A stretch of 64,000 nt of DNA. It comes from an uncultured Lentimicrobiaceae bacterium (GTDB taxonomy: Bacteria > Bacteroidota > Bacteroidia > Bacteroidales > F082). The notes under the pieces were generated by a model. The model worked only from the letters and a program-made list of their open reading frames with translations. It searched no databases and was not told where the DNA came from. The position numbers and the translations under genes are program-made. The DNA lies in assembly GCA_964549335.1 (NCBI GenBank), contig CAZJUQ010000054.1, positions 53,663 through 117,662 on the forward strand. The letters are read 5' to 3'. Positions 7,134-45,077 of the stretch are shown here, one piece after another (position 1 is the stretch's first letter; each line of letters begins with the position of its first letter).

Positions 7134-8906
7134 ATGAGAGTTTATTTCTGGGGACTTATATTATTGTTTTTCATTATCCGAAATGTAACATTTTCTCAAA
7201 CCGCTGTTATCACAACTTCTATAAGCGACACTACCGGACAAAACAGTGCCGAAATTTTATATAAAAAAGCCGTCTCGTTCTTTCCGTACGATATAGAACG
7301 TACTTTGCATTTTAACAAGCTCGCCCTCAAAATGGTTAACCCCAAAACCGAACCATTGCTTAATGCCAACATTAACAAGTTAATGGGCGACATATTCGAA
7401 AAGAAAAACAGCATTCAACCGGCAATAAATTATTATCTTATCAGTGCCAAAATATTCAAAAGGATTAACAATGCCGGCAATTTGTGCCGTGTTTATGAAC
7501 GGCTCGGCAAAATGTATTACCGCGACAACTACAATTTGAAAAACGCACTCGATTACTACTACAAAGCCCTGGAAATTGCCACCTCGTTAAACGATAACTC
7601 TTTGATTGCCGAAATATACAACAACATAGGAGGTATTCTGTTTAACCAAAACAACATAGACGAAGCATACGAATATTTTAAAAAAGCTCTTAAACTGTGG
7701 AAAAACGAAAACAACATCATGGGAACGGCAAGGGCATTCAATAACATCGGCGAAATTTTCAGAAAACGTAAAATGTTCGACAAAGCGGAAGAGTATTACA
7801 ACAAAAGCCTTTCGATAAACAAAAAACATAACAACATCACATTTATGGCCGTCAATTTTCAAAATCTCGGAATTTTAAAATCGGAGACGGGAAAACATGA
7901 CGAAGCACTTAACTATTTTTTGAAAAGCATTGAGCTGTACAAAAACCAAAGCGATGAAAATAACGTGCTTAAAGTAATGTTGTTGTTGGGCAAAGAGTAC
8001 GATATTCTTAAAAACCACAAAAAAGCTTATGAAATTTTAAACAACGTTTATCAAATTGCCAAAAAAAACAACAATTGGGATTTAATAGCCTCGTCGGCCA
8101 AAGGATTAAGCAACGTTTTGGAGCATTGGGGCAATTCGGGCAAAGCATTGAAATATTATAAAATCTACTCGGAATTTAACGATTCGATAAATTTTAAAAA
8201 ACAAAACAAACTGCTCGAAGACCTGCAGATGCGTTTTATTAACGACATCAAAGAGAAAGAGCTGTCGTTAAAAGACAAAGAGATAGCACTTCTGAAAAGC
8301 GACAAGAAAGTCCGCCAATTGCAAAATTCAATACTTATTGCCGGATTTTTTGTTCTTATTATAATTTCGGTACTGCTTATTTCGCGTTACAAATCGCAAT
8401 TTCAAAAAGAGCGTCTGTTAAGTATTAAAAACGCTGAACTGCATAAAGCCCAACAAGAACTTATGGAACTGGAAATAAAAAGCAAAAACAACGATTTGGC
8501 AAATTTCGCACTGCATATTGTTGAAAAAAATAACTTTTTGCGCGAAATACGCAAACAGCTGAAAGAGCTTAACAAATATCCCGAAAATGTCAAGGACAAA
8601 AAAATTAACGAGCTAATAATAACCGTACAACAAAATTTACAAATACAGGAAGAGTTAAAGGAGTTCCGTTATAAAGTGGACCAAACATATCAAGGATTTT
8701 TCGAACGGTTAAAAACAAAACTCCCCACAATAACAAAAAACGAAGAACGGTTATGTGCCCTTTTGCGCCTTAACCTTTCGTCGAAAGAGATTGCGGCTTT
8801 GAACAACACATCGGTAAAAGCCGTTGAAATGAGCCGTTACCGGTTGCGTAAAAAATGTAAAATAGCAAACGACGAAAACCTGTGCGATTATCTTGAAAAA
8901 ATTTAA
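7134..8906 (+). CDS. membrane-anchored TPR-repeat regulator with C-terminal LuxR-type HTH
   Basis: Signal/anchor N-terminus; multiple TPR-like repeats (AxxYYxKAL...); internal TM (ILIAGFFVLIIISVLLISRY); coiled coil. C-terminus LTKNEERLCALLRLNLSSKEIAALNNTSVKAVEMSRYRLRKK is a LuxR/GerE HTH. Confidence 0.8.
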   Translation: MRVYFWGLILLFFIIRNVTFSQTAVITTSISDTTGQNSAEILYKKAVSFFPYDIERTLHFNKLALKMVNPKTEPLLNANINKLMGDIFEKKNSIQPAINYYLISAKIFKRINNAGNLCRVYERLGKMYYRDNYNLKNALDYYYKALEIATSLNDNSLIAEIYNNIGGILFNQNNIDEAYEYFKKALKLWKNENNIMGTARAFNNIGEIFRKRKMFDKAEEYYNKSLSINKKHNNITFMAVNFQNLGILKSETGKHDEALNYFLKSIELYKNQSDENNVLKVMLLLGKEYDILKNHKKAYEILNNVYQIAKKNNNWDLIASSAKGLSNVLEHWGNSGKALKYYKIYSEFNDSINFKKQNKLLEDLQMRFINDIKEKELSLKDKEIALLKSDKKVRQLQNSILIAGFFVLIIISVLLISRYKSQFQKERLLSIKNAELHKAQQELMELEIKSKNNDLANFALHIVEKNNFLREIRKQLKELNKYPENVKDKKINELIITVQQNLQIQEELKEFRYKVDQTYQGFFERLKTKLPTITKNEERLCALLRLNLSSKEIAALNNTSVKAVEMSRYRLRKKCKIANDENLCDYLEKI

Positions 8907-8915
8907 TACGCTTTT

Positions 8916-9030
8916 TGTAGAATGACAACACACGCTATTTGCCTGTCCGGCAAGTTTTTATATTTTTTTGTGTAGAAGTGCGTTTCCGGTTTTGAGGGCA
9001 ACCAAAAAGGGTTGTAGAAAGCGTGTAGAG
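8916..9030 (+). repeat. four direct TGTAGA(A/G) copies in the regulator/sigma-factor intergenic region
   Basis: TGTAGAA at 8916, 8971 and 9013; TGTAGAG at 9024. The last two are 11 nt apart. Confidence 0.5.
8938..8970 (+). terminator. weak hairpin plus T-tract after the TPR/LuxR gene
   Basis: TTGCC-TGTCC-GGCAA (5-bp stem) followed by GTTTTTATATTTTTTT. Confidence 0.4.
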
Positions 9031-9062
9031 GTATTTTTTACACTTTTATCGTTTCATAACAT

Positions 9063-9070
9063 TACTTTTG
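9063..9070 (+). promoter_or_regulatory. candidate -7 box (TAnnTTTG)
   Basis: TACTTTTG, 44 nt upstream of ATG 9115. Confidence 0.45.
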
Positions 9071-9114
9071 AACCGTCGAATGATTAATATTTCATTTTTC
9101 ATAAAATTAAAAAA

Positions 9115-9696
9115 ATGAAAAGCAATTCCACGGAAGAGAAAGAAATAATATCCCGATGTATCAGCGGGGAACGGAAAGCACAATTTGAACTTTACCGTAT
9201 ATACTCCCCGAAAATGTATGGAATTTGCATGCGATACGCAAAAAACAAAACCGATGCCGAAGACATTTTACAAGAAGGATTCATTAAAGTTTTCAGATAT
9301 TTGAAAGATTACCGTGGCGAAGGTGCATTCGAAGGCTGGATACGCAGAATAATGATTACCACATCGCTCAACTTCTATAAAAAGAAAAACCTCGTTAATA
9401 AAGATGTGGACCCGGAAACCATAAGACTCCGGGGACTGTCGCATCCCGACGCAGTATCAAAAATGGCTCACGAAGAGTTGCTTTCATTAATTCAGGAGTT
9501 GCCTAACGGTTACAGGACGGTATTTAACCTGAACACCATCGAAGGATATTCGCATAAAGAGATTAGCGAAATACTCCAAATTTCGATAAACACATCAAAA
9601 TCACAACTATCGCGTGCCAAGTCGTCGTTAAAAGATAAAATTTCCAAAATGTTTTTACTGGAAAATGACGAGGTTAAACTTGCCTCGGTATTTTAA
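9115..9696 (+). CDS. ECF-type RNA polymerase sigma-70 family factor
   Basis: Region 2 (FELYRIYSPKMYGICMRYAKNKTDAEDILQEGFIKVF) and region 4 (GYSHKEISEILQISINTSKSQLSRAK) signatures; 193 aa. Confidence 0.9.
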   Translation: MKSNSTEEKEIISRCISGERKAQFELYRIYSPKMYGICMRYAKNKTDAEDILQEGFIKVFRYLKDYRGEGAFEGWIRRIMITTSLNFYKKKNLVNKDVDPETIRLRGLSHPDAVSKMAHEELLSLIQELPNGYRTVFNLNTIEGYSHKEISEILQISINTSKSQLSRAKSSLKDKISKMFLLENDEVKLASVF

Positions 9697-9761
9697 ATAT
9701 TACCCGGCGCATATTACATTCATTATTTATTTTAAATTTGTGGCTTTTTAAACCGTTAAGT

Positions 9762-11030
9762 ATGGAAAATTCTGTATCGAACAAAAAGAGTGATTATCTA
9801 ATGCCGATAATTATTATTGGGGTTTTGTTTTTTATATTCGGGTTTGTTACATGGCTTAATGCAACACTGATACCCTATTTAAAGACTGCCTGTGAACTAA
9901 CGACGTTTGAATCGTATCTTGTAACTTTTGCATTTTACATCTCATATTTTGTAATGTCGCTTCCTTCATCGAAAGTTTTGGAAAAGACAGGTTTTAAAAA
10001 CGGCATGGCGCTCGGGCTTGTGGTAATGGCAATAGGAGCGTTAATATTTATTCCCGCGGCATTAACCCGTACGTACTCGTGGTTTTTGGGCGGTTTGTTC
10101 GTACAGGGAACCGGATTGGCGCTTTTACAAACGGCGTCAAACCCTTACGTAACGATATTGGGACCAATCGAGAGTGCCGCAAAACGTATCAGCATTATGG
10201 GAGTTGCCAACAAGTTTGCCGGCATTCTAAGTCCTATTATTCTCGGTTCCATTGTATTGTCGGGCATTAACGAACTAAAAGAGAAACTTCCCGGAATGAC
10301 CGATGCCGCCCGCGAAGCTGCACTCGGTCAACTTTCACAAAAGGTTATCCTTCCCTATGTTGTTATGGCAATTGTTTTGGTACTTATGGCCGTTGCCGTC
10401 AGGTTTTCGACACTGCCCGAGGTGGAAGCCGAAGAAGAAGAGGGTAATGACGAGCCTGCCAAATCAAGCATTTTCGGTTTTCCATATTTTTGGTTGGGGG
10501 TTATCACACTATTCTTTTACCTTGGCGCCGAAGTTGTTTCCGTTGACACATTAATTAATTACGGGCTTTCGCTCGGGTTCGACATCAATCATGCTAAGTT
10601 TTTCTCCTCGTTTACCCTTATTGCAATGATTGTGGGGTATTTGGTAGGGATAATCACCATACCCAAATACATATCGCAACAAAATGCACTTAAATATTTT
10701 GCGGTTTTGGGATTTCTGTTTACGGCCGTTGCAGTTTTCACAACAGGTTATACATCGGTACTCTTTATTGCCGCACTCGGATTTGCCAACTCCATTATGT
10801 GGCCTGCCATATGGCCTTTGGCAATAGGAGGATTGGGAAAACATACCAAACTGGGCTCCGCATTTATGATTATGGCCATTGCGGGAGGAGCCACCATTCC
10901 ACTGTTGTACGGATATCTGGCCGATTTACCCTCTATAGGAAGCACAATGGCATATGCCATACTTCTGCCTTGCTATCTGATAATATTCTTTTTTGCCACC
11001 AAGGGTTATAAAGTGGGGAGAAAAATTTAA
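9762..11030 (+). CDS. MFS sugar transporter, FucP/GluP (fucose or glucose/galactose:H+ symporter) family
   Basis: FFIFGFVTWLNATLIPYLKTACELT...YFVMSLPSSKVLEKTGFKNGM matches the FHS-family N-terminus; 12 TM-like segments. The ORF track starts at a TTG (9738); the first ATG is at 9762. Confidence 0.85.
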   Translation: MENSVSNKKSDYLMPIIIIGVLFFIFGFVTWLNATLIPYLKTACELTTFESYLVTFAFYISYFVMSLPSSKVLEKTGFKNGMALGLVVMAIGALIFIPAALTRTYSWFLGGLFVQGTGLALLQTASNPYVTILGPIESAAKRISIMGVANKFAGILSPIILGSIVLSGINELKEKLPGMTDAAREAALGQLSQKVILPYVVMAIVLVLMAVAVRFSTLPEVEAEEEEGNDEPAKSSIFGFPYFWLGVITLFFYLGAEVVSVDTLINYGLSLGFDINHAKFFSSFTLIAMIVGYLVGIITIPKYISQQNALKYFAVLGFLFTAVAVFTTGYTSVLFIAALGFANSIMWPAIWPLAIGGLGKHTKLGSAFMIMAIAGGATIPLLYGYLADLPSIGSTMAYAILLPCYLIIFFFATKGYKVGRKI

Positions 11031-12406
11031 AACGCTTTACCTGTTAACTCTTCGGGATTAAAAGGAACGAAATTCATGATGTCTTCGTGCAAGTCGTCCG
11101 CCATGCCACTGTACGAAACATTGGTTGACAGCGCCCATGTTGCTGCCTCCGTATTTTTGGTAGCCCGCAAAGTTTCAATAAATTTCCGCATTATCGTCTT
11201 TTTCCCGTACAAAACTTTCCACGTTTCCAACATCTCTTGATATAGTTCTTTTCGTGTCATTTTTGCCGGTTTAAAAGTAACATCCTCAACACTGTAATAT
11301 TCCCAGTCAGCCGGATAGTCGTTTTTTATTATCCTGTTTGCCTCCTTAAACTCTTCGAATATTTTTGTTCCGGGCATAGGAGTTAATATTCCCAATTGAT
11401 AGGCATCGATATTACTGTTCAGGATATACTCCCTCCTGTCGATGATATCCTGTTTCGTATCGGTATCCAAGCCGAAAATAAAGGAGCCGAGAACAGCTAT
11501 TCCGGCTTTATGAATTTTATCAAAAGCCTCACGGTAATAATCGGTGCCAAGGTTTGCATTTAGTCTTTTGTTAATACTTTTAAGGGCATTTATTTTTTCC
11601 GACTCTATGCCTATAAAAACCAATTTACAACCACTTTGAGCGGCAAGCGACAACAGTTCTTCGTCGTCGGCAAAGTTTATCGAAGCCTGGCTCCACCACG
11701 ATTTTTTTATCCCCCTGTCAATCATTCCTCTAAAAATTGCCTTTGCATGTTCCTTTGATTGCTTGGAATAACCGATAATATTGTCGTCTATAAAAAAGAG
11801 TTTTTTTTGCGGCACCATTTCAATATTGTCCAAAACCGCTTCCACGGGACGCATGCGGTATCTCTTTCCGTTAAATATCGTTACCGTACAAAAATCGCAA
11901 TTAAAAGGGCAACCGCGCGTGGTAAAAACCGAACCCACTTCGTAATTGTCATTAAAAATATCGTATCTCGGCAACGGCATACGGTCAAGAGGTAATTTTT
12001 CGCCGTAATATATATGTTTCAGATTTCCGTTTTCAAAATCTTTCAAAAGTGAGGGCCAAACGCTTTCGCCTTCGCCAACAACCACCGTATCAACATATTT
12101 CAATGCTTCTTGCGGCAACATTGAGGCATGAATCCCTCCCATAACAACGGGAATCTTCTTTTTACGGTATTCGCCCGCAATTTTGTAAGCACGGTTTGCC
12201 GATGATGTATATGCCGTAATACCTACCAAATCGGCTTCTCTAAAACTGAAATCGTCGAAATTTTCATCAACAAGTTCAATTTCATAACTGCCGGGGGTTA
12301 AAGCCGACAAAATACCGTAAACCAAAGGTACATATTTGGTGTTTTTATTTCTGACAAAACCTTTTCGCAGTTTGGAAACGGGATTGATAAATACTATTTT
12401 TTTCAT
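11027..12406 (-). CDS. B12-binding-domain radical SAM protein (paralog 3 of 3)
   Basis: N-terminal B12-binding-like Rossmann segment (VGITAYTSSANRAYKIAGEYRKKKIPVVMGGIHAS), then TTRGCPFNCDFCTV (CxxxCxxC). ATGA overlap with paralog 2. Confidence 0.85.
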   Translation of the reverse strand: MKKIVFINPVSKLRKGFVRNKNTKYVPLVYGILSALTPGSYEIELVDENFDDFSFREADLVGITAYTSSANRAYKIAGEYRKKKIPVVMGGIHASMLPQEALKYVDTVVVGEGESVWPSLLKDFENGNLKHIYYGEKLPLDRMPLPRYDIFNDNYEVGSVFTTRGCPFNCDFCTVTIFNGKRYRMRPVEAVLDNIEMVPQKKLFFIDDNIIGYSKQSKEHAKAIFRGMIDRGIKKSWWSQASINFADDEELLSLAAQSGCKLVFIGIESEKINALKSINKRLNANLGTDYYREAFDKIHKAGIAVLGSFIFGLDTDTKQDIIDRREYILNSNIDAYQLGILTPMPGTKIFEEFKEANRIIKNDYPADWEYYSVEDVTFKPAKMTRKELYQEMLETWKVLYGKKTIMRKFIETLRATKNTEAATWALSTNVSYSGMADDLHEDIMNFVPFNPEELTGKAF

Positions 12407-13797
12407 GCTAACTTTTTGTCAAAGACACCGCCGAAAGGTACGGTAGTTGCAATGATTTCGGGGTCGAAAAAATATCCGGTACCTTCAAAAATGGTATTAG
12501 CATAATTTGCATTCGTATAAAGTGTCCACATTGCCGTTCTGGCATCTTTTGTCTCTTTGAGGGTCATTTTAAACTTTTGCAAAAGGTTTTTGGGGTCGTA
12601 AATTCTACCCCAAGCCGTTCTTAATTCCTCGGTCAACTCTTCGTGGGTCATTTTTGCAGGTTTAATAACGTTTTCAAAAAACCTGAAACGTTGCCAATCT
12701 TTGGGAAAATCGGTATAATGGATACGGTTTTCTTTTAAAAACTTGTAATAGGTGCCTGTCCCCGGAAAAGGGGTTAACACCGTGGTTTGAAAAGCATCCA
12801 CATTTGAATTGATAATAAAATCGGCGCGGTTTTGCAAATCCTGTTTACTGTCGGTATCAAGACCGAAAATAAAGGTGCCGAGAACAGCTATTCCGTAATC
12901 GTGAATTTTACGGAAAATGTCGTTATAGTTTTGCACACCCACTTTCTGATTAAGGTCTTTTTTTGTCTCTTCGAGGGCTTCAATTTTTTCCGACTCGACA
13001 CCTATCAACACCATTTTACATCCTGTTTCGTGCGCCAGTTCCAGTATTTCGTCATTATCGGCAAAATTTATTGATGCCTGGGTAAACCACTCCTTTTTTA
13101 TTCCTCTCTCTTTCATTCCTCTTAACAACTCTATTGTTCTTTGCATGGAACGTTTACTGTAACCAATCAAATTATCGTCAACAAAAAAGAGATTCGGTTT
13201 GGTGGTTTTTTCCAACTCGTCAAGGATATCGTTTACGGGACGTTGACGGTATGCCGTACCGTTAAAGGCATGCACGGTACAAAAATCGCAACGCCAAGGA
13301 CATCCCCTTGTGGTTTGAATGGTATCGAAGGCATATTTCGGGTGAAAAAGGTCGTGACGGGCATGAACCAACTTGTCAGCTTTTAATCTTACCCCGTTAT
13401 ATCTTTTTTTAAGATTATTGTTTTCGAAATCCTTTAATACGGTTTGCCAAACACTTTCGGCTTCACCGGCAACAACCACGTCAACATATTTTTCAGCCTC
13501 TTCGGGAATCATCGAAGCATGAATGCCACCCATAACCACCGGCACATTTTGTTTGCGGTAAATTTCGGCTATCTGATATGCACGGTAAGCATTTCCCGTA
13601 AAAGCTGTCAGCCCAACAAAATCGGCTTCTTTATATTCAAAATCGTCAAAGTTTTCATCAAAAATCTCAACTTCCCAATTGTCGGGTGTCAATGTCGCCA
13701 AAATACCGAGACCAAGCGGCGGGTAATTGGAAAACTCGTAGTTCAGCAAACCTGTTTTTAAATAGTTGCGAGGATTAATTAACAGTAACTTTTTCAT
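12403..13797 (-). CDS. B12-binding-domain radical SAM protein (paralog 2 of 3)
   Basis: VGLTAFTGNAYRAYQIAEIYRKQNVPVVMGGIHAS and TTRGCPWRCDFCTV. Collinear with both neighbours along the full length. Confidence 0.85.
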   Translation of the reverse strand: MKKLLLINPRNYLKTGLLNYEFSNYPPLGLGILATLTPDNWEVEIFDENFDDFEYKEADFVGLTAFTGNAYRAYQIAEIYRKQNVPVVMGGIHASMIPEEAEKYVDVVVAGEAESVWQTVLKDFENNNLKKRYNGVRLKADKLVHARHDLFHPKYAFDTIQTTRGCPWRCDFCTVHAFNGTAYRQRPVNDILDELEKTTKPNLFFVDDNLIGYSKRSMQRTIELLRGMKERGIKKEWFTQASINFADNDEILELAHETGCKMVLIGVESEKIEALEETKKDLNQKVGVQNYNDIFRKIHDYGIAVLGTFIFGLDTDSKQDLQNRADFIINSNVDAFQTTVLTPFPGTGTYYKFLKENRIHYTDFPKDWQRFRFFENVIKPAKMTHEELTEELRTAWGRIYDPKNLLQKFKMTLKETKDARTAMWTLYTNANYANTIFEGTGYFFDPEIIATTVPFGGVFDKKLA

Positions 13798-13804
13798 TTG
13801 CTAT

Positions 13805-15178
13805 CTATATTGATTTTTTAAATACTTCATCCAATTTTATATGCTTTTTCAGGTCTGTTTCGAAAGCCATATTATGGTAATGGACATTTGCCGAAAAAGC
13901 CCACAATGCCGTTTTAGGGTCTTTTGTAACCTTCAATGTACGTAACATCAACTGCATAAGCCTTTTGCTGTCGTATATCTTTTCCGCCGCTTCGGTAACA
14001 ACCTCTTTCAGTTTCCGGGCAGTCATGTTCTTAGGTTTAATAACGATATCGCCACCCCAGTAGTTTTCCCAGTCGGCGGGATAACCGGTTGCGGTAAGCC
14101 TCCCCTCTTTTAGAAAATCGTCATAAGTTTTTGTGCCGGGGAAAGGTGTTAATATGGATATTTGAACCGCATCGATATTTGAGTTTAAAATATATTCCGT
14201 ACGGTTTTTAATATCTTGAACGGTATCGGTATCGAGCCCCATAATAAAGGTACCCAAAACACTGATTCCGTGTTTTTGAATAACAGAAAATATTTTTTGA
14301 TAATTATCAACTCCTGCTTTTAAATTCGAACGTTTGTTCATACTTTGCAAGGCGTCGGTTTTTTCCGATTCGACACCGATAAGTACCAAACGGCAACCGG
14401 CTTTGTAAGCCAAATCGAGCAACTCCTCATCTTCGCCGAAATTTATGGAAGCCTGACAAAACCACTCCTTGTTTATCCCCATATCTATCATTCCTTTAAA
14501 AATAGCCTTTGCATGGTCTCTTGCCGGCTTGTTGTATCCCACAATATTGTCGTCGACAAAGAAAAAACGTTCGGCATTCATAACTTTCAATTCATAAAGG
14601 ACATCATCAACCGGACGCATGCGGTACGCCTTGCCGTTAAACACGGGAACCGAACAAAATTCGCAGTTCATCGGACAACCGCGTGTGGTTTGTATTGAGT
14701 CTATTACATACTCTTTGTTGAAAAGGTCGTGGCGGGCAACGGGCATCTTATCCAAAGATATTAATCCGCCGGAATAGCGTTTTTTCAATATTCCCGACTC
14801 AAAATCGGAGATTATATTTTTCCATGTGGCTTCGGCTTCGCCAATGGCAACAACATCCACATATTTTTCGGCTTCGTCGGGCAGCATCGATGCATGGATA
14901 CCGCCCATCACCACGGGAATTTTTTTATCGCGATATGCCAATGCTATTTCGTATGCCCTCTTTGCCGTTGATGTAAAAGCGGTTATCCCTACAATATCGG
15001 CATCTTCGTAAACAAAATCCTCAAAATTCTCATCAATGAGTTTTACCTCCCAATCATCCGGTGTTAACGCGGCTACTATTCCAAGACCGAGAGGCGGATA
15101 CCTCGACTCCTTATCAATAAGAAAACCAATGCGATGACGACTACGCGGATTTATTAACAAAAGTTTTTTCTTAGACAT
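13805..15178 (-). CDS. B12-binding-domain radical SAM protein (paralog 1 of 3)
   Basis: VGITAFTSTAKRAYEIALAYRDKKIPVVMGGIHAS and TTRGCPMNCEFCSV. The ORF track starts at a TTG (15202); ATG 15178 gives MSKKKLLLINPR, matching the paralog N-termini. Confidence 0.85.
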   Translation of the reverse strand: MSKKKLLLINPRSRHRIGFLIDKESRYPPLGLGIVAALTPDDWEVKLIDENFEDFVYEDADIVGITAFTSTAKRAYEIALAYRDKKIPVVMGGIHASMLPDEAEKYVDVVAIGEAEATWKNIISDFESGILKKRYSGGLISLDKMPVARHDLFNKEYVIDSIQTTRGCPMNCEFCSVPVFNGKAYRMRPVDDVLYELKVMNAERFFFVDDNIVGYNKPARDHAKAIFKGMIDMGINKEWFCQASINFGEDEELLDLAYKAGCRLVLIGVESEKTDALQSMNKRSNLKAGVDNYQKIFSVIQKHGISVLGTFIMGLDTDTVQDIKNRTEYILNSNIDAVQISILTPFPGTKTYDDFLKEGRLTATGYPADWENYWGGDIVIKPKNMTARKLKEVVTEAAEKIYDSKRLMQLMLRTLKVTKDPKTALWAFSANVHYHNMAFETDLKKHIKLDEVFKKSI

Positions 15179-15252
15179 ACAACCCTTTTCCAAAGGCTGC
15201 AAAGATATTAATATATGTTAAAAGGTTAAATGTTTTGTGAAAATTATCAATT

Positions 15253-15260
15253 CAAACATA
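15253..15260 (-). promoter_or_regulatory. candidate -7 box (TAnnTTTG) for the triple radical SAM operon
   Basis: Minus strand TATGTTTG, 74 nt upstream of ATG 15178. Confidence 0.4.
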
Positions 15261-15363
15261 TTAAAACACGAAAAACCTTTAACGTCATACTAAAGCCGTA
15301 ACAATAAGTGCCGTTTTCCCGCATTATCTCCGTTTCAAATTAAGAGCGAACTGAAAAATAGAT

Positions 15364-15371
15364 TAGTTTTG
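15364..15371 (+). promoter_or_regulatory. candidate -7 box (TAnnTTTG) for the ACP-GT2-GNAT operon
   Basis: TAGTTTTG, 18 nt upstream of ATG 15390. Confidence 0.45.
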
Positions 15372-15389
15372 TGCTCAAAAAAATCAGAG

Positions 15390-15650
15390 ATGAATATTGA
15401 AGAATTTATTAAAAAGATAGAAGCCGAATTTCCCGATTTGCAAAAAGGAGTCCTGAAACCTGAAACAAGGTTTCGCGACGAAGTCGAGTGGGATTCGATA
15501 AATGCACTGGTTATTATTGCCATGATAAACATAGAATACGATGTAACCATTACGGCCGAAGAGCTTATTAACGCCGAAACCGTTCAGGATGTTTACGATA
15601 TTGTTGAAAAGAAGGTTCTGGAAAACAAGGAAAAAGAAACTGACGCATAA
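15390..15650 (+). CDS. acyl/peptidyl carrier protein-like (phosphopantetheine attachment) protein
   Basis: 86 aa. EVEWDSINALVIIAMI contains the DS(L/I) Ser attachment motif in the expected helix-2 position. The ORF track starts at a TTG (15369). Confidence 0.7.
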   Translation: MNIEEFIKKIEAEFPDLQKGVLKPETRFRDEVEWDSINALVIIAMINIEYDVTITAEELINAETVQDVYDIVEKKVLENKEKETDA

Positions 15651-15664
15651 AAAAACATACCGTC

Positions 15665-16582
15665 GTGGTCGATTATTCAGTTGTAATACCGGTTTTTAAC
15701 AGCGAAAACACCTTGGAGGAAATCCATGAAAGGACATTAAAGGTTTTTGAGCAACTGGACAAAAGTGTGCAATTTGTTTTTGTTGACGACGGCAGTCTCG
15801 ACACAAGTTGGGATGTACTTTTAAAGATAAAAGATAAAAATCGGGACAACGTAACAATAATCAGGTTAAACAAAAATTACGGTCAGCACAATGCAACATT
15901 TTGCGGCATACAGCACGCAAAAGGCGAAACCATTATTACCATGGACGACGATTTGCAACATCCTCCCGAAGAGATAACAAAGTTGATAGCACGAAGAGAG
16001 GAGCGGAAAAGCGAACTCGTTTACGGTTTTTTCAACAAAAAAAAGCATTCGATGTACCGCAATTTGGGCAGCCGATTGGTAAGAAAAACGGCGGAACGGT
16101 TTCTCGACCGTCCCGAGCAGGTTTCATCGTTCAGGCTTATCAGCAGAACCGTTACCGAAAAAATTTTGCAGCATAACAGAAATTTTATCTTTATTGACGA
16201 ACTTCTGTGGTGGTACACCGACGAAATTGACTTTGCCTACGTTGAACATCACAAAAGAAAATACAAAAAATCGGGTTACACTTACGGCGCACTTTGGAAG
16301 TTTATGACCAATATGATGATATATTATACCAACTTCCCGTTGCGTCTTATGGTATATACCGGACTTCTTTTCTCGGTTTTCTTTTTTGCCGTTACAATAT
16401 ATTATCTGCTTGCCAAAATATTTTATGATGTGCCGCTCGGTTATACCTCAATAATAGTAAGCATATTGTTTTCGACCAGTTTGATACTTTTCAGCCTCGG
16501 TGTCATTGGCGAATATATCAGCAGACTATACACTTTTCAAAACCAAAAACCCCCCTTTATCATCAAAGAGATTAAAGAATGA
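15665..16582 (+). CDS. family 2 glycosyltransferase, GtrB/ArnC-like polyprenyl-phosphate glycosyltransferase
   Basis: YSVVIPVFNSE...FVFVDDGSLDTS...NYGQHNATFCGIQHAKGETIITMDDDLQHPPEE plus two C-terminal TM helices. GTG start. Confidence 0.85.
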   Translation: MVDYSVVIPVFNSENTLEEIHERTLKVFEQLDKSVQFVFVDDGSLDTSWDVLLKIKDKNRDNVTIIRLNKNYGQHNATFCGIQHAKGETIITMDDDLQHPPEEITKLIARREERKSELVYGFFNKKKHSMYRNLGSRLVRKTAERFLDRPEQVSSFRLISRTVTEKILQHNRNFIFIDELLWWYTDEIDFAYVEHHKRKYKKSGYTYGALWKFMTNMMIYYTNFPLRLMVYTGLLFSVFFFAVTIYYLLAKIFYDVPLGYTSIIVSILFSTSLILFSLGVIGEYISRLYTFQNQKPPFIIKEIKE

Positions 16583-17256
16583 AGGTAGAAACAAACGGTA
16601 TAATGATAGAGCGCCTCCAAGAAAAAGATATTGAACTGGTAAGAGAATGGCGCAATTCGGATTACATTCGCAATTTTATGAACTTCAGGGAATATATTAC
16701 TCCCGAAATGCAAAAAAAATGGTTCGAAAGCATAAACAACTTTAACAATTTTTATTTTATCATCCACTACAAGGGTAAAAAAGTAGGTTTGGGAAACATT
16801 AAAAACGTTAATTGGGAAGAGCGTTCGGGCGAAGCAGGTGTGTTTGTCGTCGACAAAAACTTACTGGGATCGTTTTTACCCGTTGTGGGAGCATTAACCA
16901 TGAGTTCTCTCGTCTTCGATATCTTCGATTTCCATAAACTGTATGCCCAAATCAGAGTGGATAATAAACGGGCAAAAAAGTTCAACCGTGTATTCGGCTA
17001 CAAAATGTTGCCCGGCGAAGAGAATAAAGAGAGTCAAATGCACATTTTATCAAAAGAGGATTTTTACAAAAGCACGAAAAAGTTCTTTATTTTGATGAAG
17101 ACAATGGGGTTCAGCACAAAAAACCTTAAAATAGTAATAGAACCCGTCGATTTTGAAACCGATTTTGCAGAACGCATTATTAAACTCATAGAACAATCGC
17201 CCTTACTTTTCGACGTAAAAAGAACGGGAAACGAGATTATTTACACCGAGGTATAA
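16579..17256 (+). CDS. GNAT family N-acetyltransferase, PseH-like
   Basis: IERLQEKDIELVREWRNSDYIRNFM resembles the WRN motif of PseH-type amino-sugar acetyltransferases. ATGA overlap with the GT2 stop. Confidence 0.7.
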   Translation: MKVETNGIMIERLQEKDIELVREWRNSDYIRNFMNFREYITPEMQKKWFESINNFNNFYFIIHYKGKKVGLGNIKNVNWEERSGEAGVFVVDKNLLGSFLPVVGALTMSSLVFDIFDFHKLYAQIRVDNKRAKKFNRVFGYKMLPGEENKESQMHILSKEDFYKSTKKFFILMKTMGFSTKNLKIVIEPVDFETDFAERIIKLIEQSPLLFDVKRTGNEIIYTEV

Positions 17257-17260
17257 ACCG

Positions 17261-18073
17261 TTACCATACCAATCCGCTCATGTAACCCACAACCCTGCCC
17301 GTGTCGTTTGAAACATCGGCGCTTGTGCGATAGTCAAGCAATGCGGTATTATAGCCATTGTCCGATGCCACCTTTGTAAGGGCTTTTAATCCCGTTATAC
17401 CGCAAGCCTCACAACCTTCGCCGTACATCTTCACATCCTTTTTTTCAAACGCCTTTATGCATATGGCATCCAACCACCGGGCGGTAGCCTCTGTATGAAA
17501 ATGACTCAAATCGCTGCTTATTACCACCGCACAATTATCATTACGTAACACCTCCGAAATTATTTCCGCAACCAGATTCATGCCGGCATCACCGTATATC
17601 AACTCTACAATGCGGGCTTGCCCGTTATAATGCGCAATAAAGGGCATTTGAGTTTCGGTACTGTGCTCTTTGTAATGCGCCTCCTTATTAAAAACAAATG
17701 CAAACTTCCCGTGTAATGTTTCCAGCATATCGGTAGCGGTTTTAAGTATCCCTTGCGGTGTCTCGTAATATTCGGTAAATGCTGCACTTACCCCCTTAAA
17801 ATAGACATGGTGACTGGGACCTATTACGACGATACACTGCGGTTTTGAGTTTGCTAATGCTTTGTGTGCCGCATTTGCCGTAAATCCGCTGTAAACATAT
17901 CCTGCATGAGGCGAAATTACGGCACGCGGTTTCTTGTTCATGTAAGAGTATCCTTTTACCAAGGGCAAATTTTTATTAAAAACCTCTATAAGCCTGTCAA
18001 TTTCGACACGCGATGACGGATAAAACATGCCGCTGTTTCCGGCTTTACGGTATTTTTCAAATATCAGTTCCAT
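17261..18073 (-). CDS. AmmeMemoRadiSam system protein B (MEMO1 family)
   Basis: AGNSGMFYPSS and ISPHAGYVYSG motifs typical of MEMO. Start chosen at the second ATG (MELIFEKY), leaving a 10-nt overlap with the radical SAM gene. Confidence 0.85.
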   Translation of the reverse strand: MELIFEKYRKAGNSGMFYPSSRVEIDRLIEVFNKNLPLVKGYSYMNKKPRAVISPHAGYVYSGFTANAAHKALANSKPQCIVVIGPSHHVYFKGVSAAFTEYYETPQGILKTATDMLETLHGKFAFVFNKEAHYKEHSTETQMPFIAHYNGQARIVELIYGDAGMNLVAEIISEVLRNDNCAVVISSDLSHFHTEATARWLDAICIKAFEKKDVKMYGEGCEACGITGLKALTKVASDNGYNTALLDYRTSADVSNDTGRVVGYMSGLVW

Positions 18074-19050
18074 ACTCCGTCGATTTTTGTACCACAATAT
18101 TTGCATTTTCCGTCAACCAAACTGTTTTTCGAGATATAATATCCCCTTCTGACTATCAACTCTTTTCCGCAACCCGGACAAGTTGTTATTGCCGGCTCTG
18201 AAACATTTCCTTTATAAACATATTTCAACCCCCTTTTCTTACCGGTTTCGTAAGCTCTTTGTAAAGATTGCAAACTCGTATGGTTTTTATCCGTCATTTT
18301 GTAATGGGGATAAAAAGCCGAAATATGCCAAGGGGTACTATTTCCAAGCTCGCCGGCAATAAATCCGGCAATGTCGTCCAACTGCGAACCGCCATCGTTT
18401 TCGCCTGGCACAACAAGTGTTGTAACCTCTATCCAGAAACCGTTTTTTCTCAACAATTTCAAAGTGTCAAGCACCCCTTCAAGAGTTCCTTTCAAGGTTT
18501 TTTTATAATATGCGGCATCAAAACTTTTCAGGTCAACATTAAAAGCGTCTATTATCCCCATCATGTCATTAATAACCTCTTCTGACTCCATTCCGTTGGT
18601 AACAAAGACGTTTTTTATCCCTTTTGATTTTGCCAATAGAGCCGTATCGCGGGCAAAAGGATAAAACACCGAGGGCTCGTTATAAGTATATGCTATTGTT
18701 TTACAGTTGTTTTTTAGGGCAAGAGCAACAATTTGTGCGGGAGTAACCTCTTGGGAGAAAGAGAGGTCGCCGGTTTGCGAAATTTGCCAGTTTTGACAAA
18801 ACGGACATTGCAAATTACATCCCACAGTACCAATGGAGAGTGCGGTGGAACCGGGCAAAAAATGGTACAACGGCTTTTTTTCCACAGGATCGATATTCAG
18901 GGCTGCCACTTTACCGTAAACCAAATTCTCAAGTGCGCCCTTTTCGTTTTTATTAACACCGCAAATGCCGGTTTGCCCCTCCTTCAAATTGCAATAATGG
19001 CGGCAAAGCAGACACCTTATCCCTTTTGATGTTTGTTGATAATATGTCAT
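18064..19050 (-). CDS. AmmeMemoRadiSam system radical SAM enzyme
   Basis: N-terminal Cys cluster (CLLCRHYCNL...CGV) then GCNLQCPFCQNWQIS, and C-terminal CPGCG...CKYCG. Sits between the AMMECR1 and MEMO genes. Confidence 0.9.
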   Translation of the reverse strand: MTYYQQTSKGIRCLLCRHYCNLKEGQTGICGVNKNEKGALENLVYGKVAALNIDPVEKKPLYHFLPGSTALSIGTVGCNLQCPFCQNWQISQTGDLSFSQEVTPAQIVALALKNNCKTIAYTYNEPSVFYPFARDTALLAKSKGIKNVFVTNGMESEEVINDMMGIIDAFNVDLKSFDAAYYKKTLKGTLEGVLDTLKLLRKNGFWIEVTTLVVPGENDGGSQLDDIAGFIAGELGNSTPWHISAFYPHYKMTDKNHTSLQSLQRAYETGKKRGLKYVYKGNVSEPAITTCPGCGKELIVRRGYYISKNSLVDGKCKYCGTKIDGVWN

Positions 19051-19610
19051 CTCTCCTCCTCAAAAATTTCAACTTCGAAACGGTAAATACCGGGGTGACT
19101 GTATATGCAGTCGCCCTCAAGTCCCGCTTTAAGACAAAGATGATAAAAGAACACATCGAAAGAGGGTAACTTGTCCCAAACCTGAGGCAAAAACACTGCC
19201 CTTCTGAATCCTTTCGATAGTATTATGCCGTCTTTCCCGGGGACAAGAAGACCTTTAAGTTCGTCAACACTGCTATAAATAACCTCTTCCGGTTTCGACA
19301 AAAGCGAAATTTCTATGGAGATATCCTCCATTTCATCCGGTTCCACCGGTTGGAACCTGCTGTCGCTGAATGCCGCCGCACGGGCATTGTGAATTATATC
19401 GTCCAACAACATGCGGTGTGCTTCAATACTTCCTATACAGCCGCGCAATTGTCCCTCTTTGTTGAGGGTAACAAAAACGGCACCGGGTTCGGCAAGACGT
19501 GGATATCGCCCTGTCAAATACTCCTTGTCTATCAGTTTTGCGCCTGTCAGCTTTTCCATTATCGCCTTCCGCGCAACATCAAGCATCGCTTTTTTTAACG
19601 AATCTTCCAT
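19047..19610 (-). CDS. AmmeMemoRadiSam system protein A (AMMECR1 family)
   Basis: GAVFVTLNKEGQLRGCIGS motif. ATGA overlap with the radical SAM gene. The ORF track starts at a TTG (19646); the first ATG is at 19610. Confidence 0.85.
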   Translation of the reverse strand: MEDSLKKAMLDVARKAIMEKLTGAKLIDKEYLTGRYPRLAEPGAVFVTLNKEGQLRGCIGSIEAHRMLLDDIIHNARAAAFSDSRFQPVEPDEMEDISIEISLLSKPEEVIYSSVDELKGLLVPGKDGIILSKGFRRAVFLPQVWDKLPSFDVFFYHLCLKAGLEGDCIYSHPGIYRFEVEIFEEER

Positions 19611-19658
19611 CGATTTTCCCCTCTTTTTTAAAAAGGCAAACTTCAAATTTTATACCAA

Positions 19659-19666
19659 CAAAGATA
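19659..19666 (-). promoter_or_regulatory. candidate -7 box (TAnnTTTG) for the AmmeMemoRadiSam operon
   Basis: Minus strand TATCTTTG, 48 nt upstream of ATG 19610. Confidence 0.45.
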
Positions 19667-19702
19667 ATAAAAACGATAGGTTAACAGAATATTACAGGCA
19701 AT

Positions 19703-19736
19703 AAAAAAAGCAAAACCCCTTCCGGAATTTTGCTTT
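19703..19736 (-). terminator. rho-independent terminator
   Basis: AAAGCAAAA (19707-19715) pairs with TTTTGCTTT (19728-19736). On the minus strand it is followed by a T-run. Lies 24 nt after the stop of the 19760..20776 gene. Confidence 0.6.
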
Positions 19737-19759
19737 TCTCATCTTTCCATTCAAGTCTT

Positions 19760-20776
19760 TCACTGAATGTCAACGGCAATTTTTCTAAAGTCGTTCAAAA
19801 GTTTAGTCACTTTGTTTTCAACGCTTTTTATATCTCCCTGTTTTGAAAGTTCATTCAATTGTTGTTCAATGGCCTCTTCCTTTTTTATGCCTGATTCCAA
19901 AGCGGTTTTATCAAATTTAAGGTATTGGAACTTTCCGGAGCGTTCCAAGAACTTTTTACCCGAGCGGATATCACTGTGAACAAGAGCTGCGGCTTCAGGC
20001 AAAATATTTGCGGCTTTATCATACATACCTTTATTGATAAATGCTTTAAAATCGTTCGAGAGTGAGGCGGCTTTTTTATTCCGGTTGCTGCGTAATTTGT
20101 TAAACGATTCCAACTGGCGGTTTTCCATTCTTCTGAAATAGGAAGGAGGCAAATTGTTTTTTGCCGGTTTGGCAGGCTGGTTATGTACCATATGAACCAT
20201 ATGACCGCCGCCGTAATTATTATGGTTTTTCAAAGAGGATGTACCGCTATTTCCGTGAGCTTGCGGCTCAATTTTATCGTATTTTCTCAAGTTGGTTTTC
20301 ATGAGGTTTAAAAATTCGGACAAATTTCCTCTTATCCCGCTCAACTTTCGCTGATTCGTCATATTTATTTCGGGATTGAAGTCCTTCAGTTTGTTAAAAA
20401 GATATTTTTCCCTGTTCAACCTGTCGGTAAGTGTTTGTATTTCCAATCTCTTGTTAAAAGCGGCACCCGTATTGGGATTGTGTGTCAATTTTCCGGTTTT
20501 AATGTCGTAAAGATTTTTTTCGGACCTGCCTATTTCGTTTGTCGCCAAAGTTATCAACTTTGAACGCTCTTCAAGTACTTTTGCTTTATTTCCTGAACGG
20601 TAAGCCGTTTCCAAAATGCTTTTTGCCGTTTCAAAAGCCTTTATGTCGTTTTGACGGCTACCCTGAATTTGTGTGGCTGTACCCGTTTGTCCGTTTTTTG
20701 AAACCAACTGAGCGTAAATATCGGTCACCGAAAAGGTTACCGCTAAAACCAATAAATAAACAATTCTTTTTTTCAT
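19760..20776 (-). CDS. hypothetical secreted alpha-helical protein
   Basis: ATG 20776 gives MKKRIVYLLVLAVTFSVTDIYAQ (signal peptide). Helical, K/E/N-rich, with a central GGGHMVHMVHNQ His patch. No family recognised. Confidence 0.6.
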   Translation of the reverse strand: MKKRIVYLLVLAVTFSVTDIYAQLVSKNGQTGTATQIQGSRQNDIKAFETAKSILETAYRSGNKAKVLEERSKLITLATNEIGRSEKNLYDIKTGKLTHNPNTGAAFNKRLEIQTLTDRLNREKYLFNKLKDFNPEINMTNQRKLSGIRGNLSEFLNLMKTNLRKYDKIEPQAHGNSGTSSLKNHNNYGGGHMVHMVHNQPAKPAKNNLPPSYFRRMENRQLESFNKLRSNRNKKAASLSNDFKAFINKGMYDKAANILPEAAALVHSDIRSGKKFLERSGKFQYLKFDKTALESGIKKEEAIEQQLNELSKQGDIKSVENKVTKLLNDFRKIAVDIQ

Positions 20777-20824
20777 AGTCGTGCTTTTTGTTTTACTAAG
20801 GTCTATTAAATAACTTTTGTTTTT

Positions 20825-20832
20825 CAAAAATA
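20825..20832 (-). promoter_or_regulatory. candidate -7 box (TAnnTTTG)
   Basis: Minus strand TATTTTTG, 48 nt upstream of ATG 20776. Confidence 0.45.
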
Positions 20833-20834
20833 AT

Positions 20835-20863
20835 CAAAAAAGTATGCCAAAAAGAGTTGGCAT
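20835..20863 (-). terminator. rho-independent terminator after the rbfA-methyltransferase pair
   Basis: ATGCCAA (20844-20850) pairs with TTGGCAT (20857-20863). On the minus strand it is followed by ACTTTTTTG. Confidence 0.55.
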
Positions 20864-20865
20864 CT

Positions 20866-21681
20866 TTATTTCCAGGCTTTGGCTATCAATCCCGTGCCGG
20901 TTTTATGAACCATTTTCACATCCAAATAATTAAGCACGAGAGAAATAGGAAAAGTAACCAGATAATAGAATGGTAAAATAATAAAAAACAGATAAGAAGA
21001 ATTAAGCATGATAATGGGGTATTTCATACTTAATTTCCAGGAAATTTTCCCGGGAGTTCCATATTGGTAATAAGCTTCCGTTTTTGAAAAACCGGCTTTT
21101 TTCATCTTTTCCTCTATTTCGGCAATGCCGTATCCGTCTCTTACATGTTCGTCGATAAACGATTCGGTGCCGTCGTGGTCATGGTCGTGCACGTCGCTAC
21201 CGCCTTGATCCGAAGGAGTTGACACAAGTAACATACCGCCCTTTTTCATCGATTTGTAATAATTCTTCAAAACTTTAACATCCTCTTCAATATGTTCCAT
21301 AACGTCAACGCAAAGAATAAGGTCGTACTTATCAGGTTCCGAAAACCGGGTAAGGTCTGCCACTTCAAAACCGACATTGTTTAAACCGGTACGGCTGAAA
21401 AAATTGTTACAATCGTCTATCTGCTCTTGCTTTACGTCAACACCTTTTATTTTCCAATTCTTGTTTCGGTTGGCCAAATAGAAATCATACTGTCCGAAAC
21501 CCGAACCTGCATCCAGGATATTGCGCTCGCCCCGGTTTTCTTTTTCCCACTGTCTCAGAGCTTTACGAATATGCCACGAACGCAACAGCAGCATATCGAG
21601 GAGTCTGTAAAACAGTTTTCTTAAAAAGGGTCTTTTGTTAAATACCGCCCCGAGTTTTCTTTTTACCGGATCGTATTGCAT
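20866..21681 (-). CDS. class I SAM-dependent methyltransferase with C-terminal membrane segment
   Basis: ILDAGSGFGQYDF (motif I) and LILCVDVMEHIEED. Hydrophobic C-terminal ~60 aa. Lies 10 nt downstream of rbfA. Confidence 0.8.
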   Translation of the reverse strand: MQYDPVKRKLGAVFNKRPFLRKLFYRLLDMLLLRSWHIRKALRQWEKENRGERNILDAGSGFGQYDFYLANRNKNWKIKGVDVKQEQIDDCNNFFSRTGLNNVGFEVADLTRFSEPDKYDLILCVDVMEHIEEDVKVLKNYYKSMKKGGMLLVSTPSDQGGSDVHDHDHDGTESFIDEHVRDGYGIAEIEEKMKKAGFSKTEAYYQYGTPGKISWKLSMKYPIIMLNSSYLFFIILPFYYLVTFPISLVLNYLDVKMVHKTGTGLIAKAWK

Positions 21682-38089: not shown

Positions 38090-38668
38090 TCAGAGCGGCG
38101 AATTATCCTGAAACAGTATCTTTAAAAAAGCCGCAATCTCCCGGAGATTGAGTATTTTGTGCGGCCTGACAAGTTTTATTGCCGATGAAGGCATAGCCGC
38201 ACTTTCCGCTTCGTCGGGGTTTTGTACTATGGTAAACCCTCCCCTATCTTTTATTGTTTTCAAACCTTGTGCGCCGTCGGAATTGGCTCCCGTTAACACG
38301 ATACCCACAAGTTGCTTTCCATAAGCAAGCGCCGCAGTTTCGAAAGTAACATCGATACTCGGACGCGAATAGTTGACCTTTTCTTCCACCGACAACGACA
38401 GAGTAAAATCCTCCTCTATCAACAAATGATAATTGGGCGGGGCAACATATGCCACTCCCGGTTTAATTACCTCTTTTTCGTCGGCCTCTTTTACCCTTAT
38501 GCCGGAAATATTATCCAAAAATTTAGCCATATAGCTTTCGGACGAAGGACTTATATGCTGAATAATAAAAACAGCGGCAGGAAAATCTGCCGGCAATTGC
38601 GGAAGTATTGTTTTCAGAGCATTGATTCCTCCCGCCGACGAGCCTATTGCCACTGCTTTGTACGGCAT
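38090..38668 (-). CDS. cheB: CheB-type protein-glutamate methylesterase, catalytic domain only (no receiver)
   Basis: 192 aa. AIGSSAGGINAL (Ser), FIIQHISPS (His) and TGANSDGAQG (Asp) correspond to the CheB catalytic triad regions. Starts 1 nt after the cheR stop. Confidence 0.88.
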   Translation of the reverse strand: MPYKAVAIGSSAGGINALKTILPQLPADFPAAVFIIQHISPSSESYMAKFLDNISGIRVKEADEKEVIKPGVAYVAPPNYHLLIEEDFTLSLSVEEKVNYSRPSIDVTFETAALAYGKQLVGIVLTGANSDGAQGLKTIKDRGGFTIVQNPDEAESAAMPSSAIKLVRPHKILNLREIAAFLKILFQDNSPL

Positions 38669-38669
38669 T

Positions 38670-41119: not shown

Positions 41120-41130
41120 ACTGTTATTTG

Positions 41131-44964: not shown

Positions 44965-45077
44965 AACAATATTTTTTTTGCAATTTCATTTTGCAAAACG
45001 CAAACGGCATTACTAAAATACTCTTACGTAAAAAAGGCAAATTGGTTTCTGAAATAAAAAAAAACGGGATAAAATCA

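Follow-up and report, generated by a model that had tools for sequence, protein, structure and literature searches.

Three genes for radical S-adenosylmethionine (SAM) enzymes of predicted cobalamin type (rSAM_A, rSAM_B and rSAM_C) lie back to back with genes for an acyl carrier protein (ACP), a family 2 glycosyltransferase (GT2) and an N-acetyltransferase-like protein of the GNAT superfamily in the genome of an uncultured Lentimicrobiaceae bacterium (GenBank assembly GCA_964549335.1, contig CAZJUQ010000054.1; the 64,000 nucleotides analysed are called the window here). This raises the question whether the six genes belong together, and if so, what they could make. A preliminary description had read them as one locus of two divergent operons, rSAM_A-B-C leftward and ACP-GT2-GNAT rightward, which could build a modified polyprenyl-linked sugar or glycolipid. 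Our analysis supports this view, and both operons are closely packed. The six genes are a conserved unit whose co-conservation is strong and independent of gene order, and in the window we see a smaller version of an uncharacterised cluster that many anaerobic Bacteroidota carry. A modified polyprenyl-linked sugar is probably the product, the GT2 being a homologue of ArnC and GtrB.

Distribution of the six-gene locus

Species-representative genomes were scanned with rSAM_A, leading to 40 loci, and with the GNAT, leading to 17 loci at first and later to 362 matches, 80 of which were fetched. The census itself was a tblastn comparison over 94 GNAT loci, each from a different species genome. Radical SAM genes of the same family were located within 10 kb of the GNAT gene in 44 of the 94 loci, and the layout seen in the window, with radical SAM genes on the minus strand and an adjacent, divergent ACP gene on the plus strand, was found in 35. 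When loci with a GT2 gene and at least 5 kb of visible upstream sequence were counted, 44 with radical SAM genes faced 12 without. The linkage between radical SAM and GNAT genes was observed in at least three gene orders. One locus (L057) holds a single operon of a 3-oxoacyl-ACP synthase III (KASIII), a short-chain dehydrogenase/reductase (SDR), GT2, radical SAM and GNAT genes, with gaps of 11-12 nt across the last three; in two others (L114 and L127) the radical SAM gene lies between the ACP and KASIII genes. GT2 and GNAT genes are adjacent in nearly all loci, ACP-(KASIII-SDR)-GT2-GNAT forms a tightly packed operon in dozens of species, and the number of radical SAM paralogues per locus ranges from one to four.

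In a neighbour-joining tree, rSAM_A, rSAM_B and rSAM_C each grouped with orthologues from other Bacteroidales metagenome-assembled genomes (MAGs); those of rSAM_C were found in L001, L002, L004 and L041, and rSAM_B has an orthogroup of its own. Every member of the clade that holds the three window proteins is linked to the ACP/GT2/GNAT trio. Its sister clade consists of single-copy, GNAT/GT2-linked genes. Homologues found in other phyla, among them Chloroflexota and Bathyarchaeota, are single-copy as well and branch outside the trio-linked clades. The clade formed by the trio-linked genes, the 44 linked loci in at least three gene orders, including radical SAM genes inside the plus-strand operon, and the conserved spacer with its promoter boxes (see below) all argue against the two operons being mere neighbours without a functional link. 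Such a chance arrangement could be read from the 12 determinable loci in which the trio occurs without radical SAM genes and from the radical SAM family, which mostly occurs without the trio, but it is very improbable and close to refuted. The preliminary description had also named a known O-antigen or capsule locus in relatives without radical SAM genes as a possible home of the trio. The 12 loci without these genes are not recognisably of this kind, and in the subset of loci checked no such surroundings were found: the window locus is flanked by genes for a major facilitator superfamily (MFS) transporter, an extracytoplasmic function (ECF) sigma factor and a Memo trio, and L141, an example of an 11-gene form of the cluster, by type IX secretion system cargo.

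Two observations concern individual loci. The GNAT homologue P0065 is solitary, with no cluster around it. L002 and L067, both from MAG B6_G9, are seemingly two halves of one cluster split inside the GT2 gene: L002 holds a fatty acyl-AMP ligase (FAAL)-ACP fusion, three radical SAM genes, an ACP and a partial GT2, and L067 holds GT2, GNAT and DegT genes.

In its commonest form, which is found in anaerobic Bacteroidales/Lentimicrobiaceae, the cluster carries on the minus strand a GT-C-type glycosyltransferase with tetratricopeptide repeat (TPR)/PMT_2-like domains, a FAAL-ACP fusion or AMP-binding ligase and one to four radical SAM genes, and on the plus strand ACP-KASIII-SDR-GT2-GNAT; one or more sulfotransferases, a Wzx-like flippase and a DegT aminotransferase complete it. 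The DegT, flippase and GT-C genes recur across relatives. The window falls in a subclade of 13 loci that have lost KASIII and SDR and carry two to four radical SAM genes. The acyl-ACP ligase and flippase that the preliminary description had expected elsewhere in the genome thus have counterparts in the clusters of relatives, which add acyl-activating ligases (the FAAL-ACP fusion or a stand-alone AMP-binding enzyme), the Wzx-like flippase, DegT and the GT-C-like protein. A tblastn search of the window with DegT, Wzx, sulfotransferase, GT-C, FAAL-ACP, AMP-ligase, KASIII and SDR proteins led to two weak matches, which were judged irrelevant. A Polysacc_synt (Wzx/MurJ-like) gene on the minus strand, from 62606 to 64000 and past the window end, shows 28% identity over 117 aa to the cluster flippase; it was rejected as the flippase of this locus, being 45 kb distant and located beside secDF and RNase HII genes. 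Also rejected was the proposal, made on the first 17 loci, that radical SAM genes replace KASIII and SDR, as 31 loci carry both. Four candidate sugar-nucleotide genes adjoining the cluster of L001, L034 and L050 (c15-c17 and c21) turned out to be the housekeeping genes yicC, gmk and a nadD-like one, and a gene for a phospholipase D (PLD)-like protein.

Aerobic Bacteroidota without radical SAM genes (MAGs labelled Chryseobacterium, Chitinophagaceae, Sphingobacteriaceae and Flavobacterium) have the form KASIII-ACP-KASIII-SDR-GT2-GNAT, which is shared by one Nitrotoga locus. Genes for LpxO-like Asp/Asn hydroxylases, an O2-dependent family, were detected in none of the 44 loci with radical SAM genes, compared to 7 of the 50 without (L045, L046, L051, L052, L100, L120 and L125; Fisher p=0.014). 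This split may be explained by O2-dependent and anaerobic tailoring, respectively, of the same acyl-sugar product. A Rieske oxygenase gene accompanies the cassette without radical SAM genes in L055 and L056.

The encoded proteins and a proposed pathway

The ACP matches the phosphopantetheine-binding domain PF00550 with 29.9 bits (cut-off 20.8), and the DS(I) attachment site claimed before could be located at Ser36 within WDSIN. It remains under all AcpP equivalog cut-offs (TIGR00517, 27.8 versus 70.45 bits), its sequence being that of a dedicated, divergent carrier protein and not of a housekeeping AcpP. The GT2 reaches 96 bits with PF00535 (Glycos_transf_2), has a DDD motif at residues 94-96 (15944-15952), and hydropathy analysis indicated two hydrophobic C-terminal segments at residues ~224-256 and ~256-285 (~16334-16519). 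Residues 4-303 align over the full length to ArnC (9hwj, 5.5e-41) and GtrB (5ekp, 2.5e-39). With a GT-A domain and its DXD motif, two C-terminal transmembrane segments and end-to-end homology, the earlier assignment as a GtrB/ArnC-type polyprenyl-phosphate glycosyltransferase holds, with scores below the ArnC equivalog (NF007986, 155.9 versus 529 bits) and PgfS (138 versus 500).

The GNAT matches Pfam Acetyltransf_4/3 and contains the described WRN motif as W24-R25-N26, of which R25 and N26 are invariant across 51 homologues, and it stays below the PseH cut-off (TIGR03585, 62.8 versus 93.1 bits). A Foldseek search with its AF2 (AlphaFold) model (pLDDT 91.4) gave PseH of Helicobacter pylori as the top match (4ri1; E 8.5e-13, TM-score on target 0.77), together with FdhC (5kta, TM-score on query 0.63) and SpeG, and the GNAT core superposes on PseH and FdhC. 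An additional C-terminal alpha/beta subdomain of ~75 residues (about 17026-17253) is conserved, confidently modelled and not covered by the solved PseH and SpeG structures.

All three radical SAM proteins exceed the Pfam cut-offs for PF04055 (Radical_SAM, 54-57 bits) and PF02310 (B12-binding, 46-54 bits), which gives them the class B architecture of a CxxxCxxC-containing core with an N-terminal B12-binding domain. They are mutually 52-55% identical, and each has one CxxxCxxC motif (CPFNCDFC in rSAM_C), one GGIH motif and just 4-5 cysteines, a number that does not allow for an auxiliary iron-sulfur cluster in addition to the first. None reaches any curated NCBIfam cut-off among those tested (HpnJ, HpnR, BchE, PhpK, MgmA, AprD4 and a ladderane-type lipid radical SAM family). 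The best scores were obtained for HpnJ (112 versus 578 bits), BchE (103 versus 481), PhpK (99 versus 600) and HpnR (96 versus 650), followed by TIGR04072 (87 versus 360), the MgmA family (74 versus 360) and AprD4 (70 versus 500); HpnJ is the top match of both rSAM_A (112 bits) and rSAM_B (90 bits). Foldseek ranked AprD4, MgmA, TsrM, OxsB, CysS and TokK, in this order, against the AF2 model of rSAM_A (pLDDT 94), and the last five bind cobalamin according to a review. Identity to any solved class B member is about 20% or less. The three are predicted cobalamin-type (class B) radical SAM enzymes that may use cobalamin; a sequence motif diagnostic of such use is not known.

From gene content, domain and fold assignments and co-conservation we infer the substrates and the order of steps of a pathway to which we would give an even chance: the locus would make an N-acylated amino sugar that is linked to polyprenyl phosphate and destined for the envelope, the radical SAM enzymes tailoring an ACP-bound acyl chain that the GNAT transfers and the GT2 loads. 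Ser36 of the ACP would hold an acyl chain supplied through genes outside the window; in relatives, the chain would come from the adjacent acyl-AMP ligase or FAAL-ACP fusion and be extended by KASIII and the reductase. The three radical SAM enzymes would attack unactivated C-H positions of the bound chain, as judged from family type and gene context most likely in a cobalamin-dependent C-methylation, and each paralogue could serve one position or one round of methylation. With the tailored chain the GNAT would N-acylate a nucleotide-activated amino sugar, an acceptor suggested by the DegT aminotransferases in the clusters of relatives. Loading of the N-acyl amino sugar onto undecaprenyl phosphate is the role predicted by homology for the GT2, and flipping and final transfer to the envelope may fall to the Wzx-like flippase and the TPR/PMT_2-like GT-C protein that relatives, and not the window, encode in their clusters.

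An ACP-bound acyl chain is the most likely substrate of the radical SAM enzymes because near homologues lie in fatty-acid, phospholipid and acetyl-CoA-carboxylase operons. In a Chloroflexota MAG (MAG045; L009, ~7300-20900), a 50%-identical homologue and a second one with 30% identity are accompanied by genes for PlsY, an AMP-binding ligase, two FabF, FakA, three DegV, two PlsX, two FabG and a MaoC dehydratase, a context which suggests that the family acts in core fatty-acid or phospholipid metabolism of other phyla. P0188 (L143 8001-10094 and L144 2510-4603) is a fusion protein of 697 aa that joins a 52%-identical radical SAM part to a biotin-protein ligase (BPL_LplA_LipB and BPL_C domains), encoded in an acetyl-CoA-carboxylase operon of BioY, biotin carboxyl carrier protein (BCCP), AccC (biotin carboxylase) and carboxyltransferase genes. 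A more distant pair with 38-40% identity occurs in L033-L038 (for example L034, 8619-20025; Bacteroidales and Delongbacteria MAGs) in a conserved gene group that also encodes a CMAS-like methyltransferase and a UbiA prenyltransferase, together with two SPASM radical SAM proteins, a GT4 glycosyltransferase and a TPR/PMT_2 GT-C protein, and that may be a separate lipid-modifying cluster. Within the clusters studied here, the radical SAM genes adjoin the ACP and the FAAL-ACP or AMP-binding ligase genes. The structural neighbours of rSAM_A include the C-methylases MgmA, CysS and TokK, the latter two solved with pantetheinylated substrates, and the range of one to four paralogues per locus fits a decorating role.

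Several findings weigh against the proposed pathway. All relatives are MAGs. None of the six proteins reaches a curated family cut-off, and because of this no substrate is assigned by homology. An acyl-loading enzyme, KASIII, reductase, sugar aminotransferase and GT-C protein were not found in the 64-kb window, and the cluster-type flippase is absent from it apart from the weakly matching Wzx-like gene at a distance of 45 kb. Acetyl-CoA is the donor of PseH itself, and the GNAT may likewise do no more than acetylate. Finally, AprD4 is the top PDB match of the radical SAM proteins by sequence (1.3e-15) and by fold (TM-score 0.70-0.73), and this enzyme is a 1,2-diol dehydratase that acts on an amino sugar and binds no cobalamin (according to a review).

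The match to AprD4, which is also of similar length to rSAM_A (457 aa), leads to the principal alternative, namely that the radical SAM enzymes modify the sugar, by AprD4-like dehydration, HpnJ-like ring contraction or GenK-like C-methylation of the nucleotide- or polyprenyl-linked amino sugar, and that GNAT and ACP supply the N-acyl group only. HpnJ, the top family match of rSAM_A and rSAM_B, partners the GT2 HpnI on an amino-sugar lipid, and the commonest form of the cluster includes an SDR, as AprD3 accompanies AprD4. The SDR is just as common in clusters without radical SAM genes, however, the family scores (~70 of 500 bits for AprD4, 112 of 578 for HpnJ) are all far under the cut-offs, and the sequence match to AprD4 is restricted to the radical SAM core. 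Moreover, the radical SAM genes are found on the ACP/ligase side of the cluster, the operons of the 50-52%-identical homologues concern fatty acids, phospholipids and acetyl-CoA carboxylase and contain no sugar genes, and one to four paralogues would be hard to account for as dehydratases. Action on the sugar is therefore unlikely in our view.

The GNAT could also be an ordinary acetyl-CoA-dependent amino-sugar N-acetyltransferase, with ACP and radical SAM enzymes in a separate acyl-lipid branch (for example of methyl-branched acyl chains, O-linked later or left as free lipid) that meets the GT2 product later or never. Such a division would be improbable with ACP-(KASIII-SDR)-GT2-GNAT packed into a single operon in dozens of species. 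Acetyl-CoA is indeed the donor of the GNATs with the nearest structures, PseH and SpeG, but the conserved C-terminal subdomain extends beyond both solved structures and the FdhC fold, also matched, can accept a larger acyl donor. The KASIII-like enzymes of relatives could be the acyltransferase, as in CerJ-type proteins, and some GNAT homologues are solitary (L058); in the window subclade, on the other hand, KASIII is missing, and next to the dedicated ACP no acyltransferase candidate other than the GNAT is left. Given this ACP, N-acyl transfer from acyl-ACP is likelier for the GNAT than plain acetylation, as assumed in the proposed pathway.

Control region, gene starts and neighbouring genes

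The features of the locus are listed in the table below. Public gene calls (contig JBPNUB010000054.1 of MAG GCA_054029295.1) agree for all six genes except for the start of rSAM_A, which is called at TTG 15202 (465 aa). ATG 15178 is favoured here because of the conservation of the proximal -7 box and because the N-termini of the paralogues rSAM_B and rSAM_C (MKKLLLINP) match that of rSAM_A from this ATG; the length of 211 nt given before for the control region holds only with this start. TTG 15202 itself falls within the proximal box. The ATGA overlap of GT2 and GNAT was found as described (16579-16582), and the reading frames of rSAM_B and rSAM_C likewise share 4 nt (12403-12406).

Table. Genes and promoter elements of the locus, with positions in the window
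Feature	Position	Strand	Remarks
rSAM_C	11027-12406	minus	459 aa; radical SAM and B12-binding domains; final gene of the leftward operon
rSAM_B	12403-13797	minus	464 aa; radical SAM and B12-binding domains
rSAM_A	13805-15178	minus	457 aa from ATG 15178; radical SAM and B12-binding domains
Shared divergent promoter region	15179-15389		211 nt
Proximal -7 box	15200-15207	minus	TATCTTTG; 22 nt upstream of ATG 15178; probable element of the rSAM operon
Distal -7-like box	15253-15260 (15260-15253)	minus	TATGTTTG; 75 nt upstream of ATG 15178
-7 box	15364-15371	plus	TAGTTTTG; ~20 nt ahead of the ACP ATG
ACP	15390-15650	plus	86 aa; Ser36 codon 15495-15497
GT2, ArnC/GtrB type	15665-16582	plus	305 aa; GTG start
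GNAT	16579-17256	plus	225 aa; predicted N-acyltransferase

The motif TAnnTTTG is not enriched across the window (67 copies observed, 77 expected); intergenic sequence, which makes up 10.6% of the window, contains 25 of the 67, and for 13 of the 40 window genes a box in sense orientation was found no more than 100 nt upstream. Its weight rests on position and conservation, and not on overall count. The divergent spacer between radical SAM and ACP genes recurs in the 35 loci with this layout, mostly with a length of 130-420 nt. On the plus strand, all six of the closest loci keep the box as TTA[GA]TTTTG at ~20-28 nt upstream of the ACP start, and 22 of 26 orthologous spacers contain a box at 10-60 nt upstream of that start. 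On the radical SAM side a box was found within the same distance in 12 of the 26 spacers, counterparts of the proximal box sit 29-38 nt upstream in L001-L004, and a distal-type box occurs at 61-113 nt in some relatives, its position being less conserved. Both back-to-back boxes named in the preliminary description are therefore present and the plus-strand one is conserved, but the leftward promoter element of the radical SAM operon is probably the proximal box instead of the distal one named there. Two back-to-back promoters in the spacer would drive both operons; the boxes and their conservation support this arrangement, and co-regulation may follow from it. No Rfam family matched the spacer or any other part of the window, and the idea that the spacer contains a riboswitch or another known RNA was therefore rejected.

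Convergent genes form the edges of the locus. On the left, the MFS transporter gene (9738-11030, plus strand) and rSAM_C overlap by 4 nt at their stop codons (11027-11030), and L041 retains the same MFS neighbour with 79% identity. On the right, a complete trio of Memo, AmmeMemoRadiSam (a radical SAM protein) and AMMECR1 genes (17261-19646, minus strand) converges with the GNAT gene at a distance of 4 nt; it looks like an unrelated neighbour because it was not found beside the cluster in relatives. Farther away (38090-51612, minus strand), CheB and CheR genes are followed in one run by four very large hybrid histidine kinase/response regulator genes (538-1461 aa).

Relation to known systems and significance

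In the Arn pathway (ArnA/B/C/D/E/F/T, aminoarabinose on lipid A), a DegT-type aminotransferase makes an NDP-4-amino sugar, which is N-acylated, transferred by an ArnC-type GT2 onto undecaprenyl phosphate, flipped and finally transferred by a GT-C enzyme. The cluster follows the same logic: its GT2 aligns with ArnC, and the clusters of relatives contribute DegT along with a flippase and a GT-C-like protein. The acyl module of Arn is a formyltransferase domain, in place of which the cluster has ACP and GNAT with KASIII, SDR, ligase and radical SAM tailoring; moreover, the flippase is Wzx-like instead of ArnE/F, the GT-C candidate is TPR/PMT_2-like instead of ArnT, and the cluster has no deacylase. 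A whole Arn system was not found in the 64-kb window, which is lacking an ArnB-like aminotransferase, a flippase and an ArnT-like GT-C; the counterparts seen in relatives are analogous genes and not orthologues. A similar use of a dedicated ACP is known from RfbK-O of Vibrio cholerae O1, where perosamine is N-acylated with tetronate in an ACP-dependent manner. There too, an acyltransferase works with a dedicated ACP and an acyl-activating enzyme, and a 4-amino sugar receives an N-acyl group of an unusual kind, whereas that set belongs to an O-antigen locus and includes neither an ArnC-type GT2 nor a radical SAM enzyme.

The GtrA/B/C, CsbB/GtcA/YfhO and PgfS systems use the same GtrB-family GT2 with two C-terminal transmembrane helices to form a polyprenyl-phosphate monosaccharide donor, but plain Glc or GlcNAc is moved by them, without partners of the ACP, GNAT or radical SAM kind in any of these systems. 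PseH and FdhC, which act on nucleotide-linked amino sugars, share the core fold and the WRN-type motif with the window GNAT; what sets the latter apart are the additional ~75-residue C-terminal subdomain and its genetic coupling to an ACP in place of a CoA-thioester supply. With the class B methylases that work repeatedly or have pantetheine- or carrier-bound substrates (CysS, TokK/ThnK, BchQ/BchR, and on lipids Gmm and HpnP/HpnR) the radical SAM proteins have in common the N-terminal B12-type Rossmann domain, the radical SAM barrel and the absence of an auxiliary cluster, and there are examples in this class of sets of paralogues or of repeated methylation at unactivated carbons (reviews). 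These methylases are longer (575-730 aa, compared to ~460 aa), however, and none has been described with a GT2/GNAT/ACP module. AprD4, which acts with AprD3 in aminoglycoside deoxygenation, comes nearest to the window proteins among solved structures, equals them in size and acts on an amino sugar, but it is without cobalamin, its family score is low (~70 of 500 bits) and the near homologues of the window proteins are found in lipid-related and not sugar-related contexts.

A literature search that included reviews on radical SAM enzymes that modify lipids and on those that depend on B12 found no description of the cluster, and no curated family covers it, in line with the earlier statement that the enzyme set matches no described pathway. 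The cluster is compact and widespread, with its GNAT marker in 362 species genomes, is predicted to modify the envelope and has no characterised member. It combines B12-type radical SAM enzymes with three well-understood types of protein, namely an ArnC-type GT2, a PseH-like putative N-acyltransferase and a dedicated ACP, a set for which no earlier description was found, and gives a hint of a split between O2-using and anaerobic chemistry for the decoration of the same acyl-sugar.

A large orphan radical SAM family, comprising more than 5,700 protein clusters at E<=1e-20 with generic names only, from bacteria and archaea of anoxic habitats, thereby gains a concrete substrate hypothesis, namely acyl-ACP. 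More tentatively, and with less than even odds in our view, the family may carry out O2-independent methyl-branching, or another C-H functionalisation, of ACP-bound acyl chains in anaerobes, of which Bacteroidales would have recruited one to four copies for a new class of lipid-carrier-linked N-acyl amino sugars. To our knowledge, the enzymes that make the mid-chain methyl branches of anaerobic bacterial lipids are still unknown; if this proposal is true, the family would be a candidate source of them. As for the cluster itself, its product is a possible new surface antigen, or lipid biomarker, of Bacteroidota that live in anoxic sediments.

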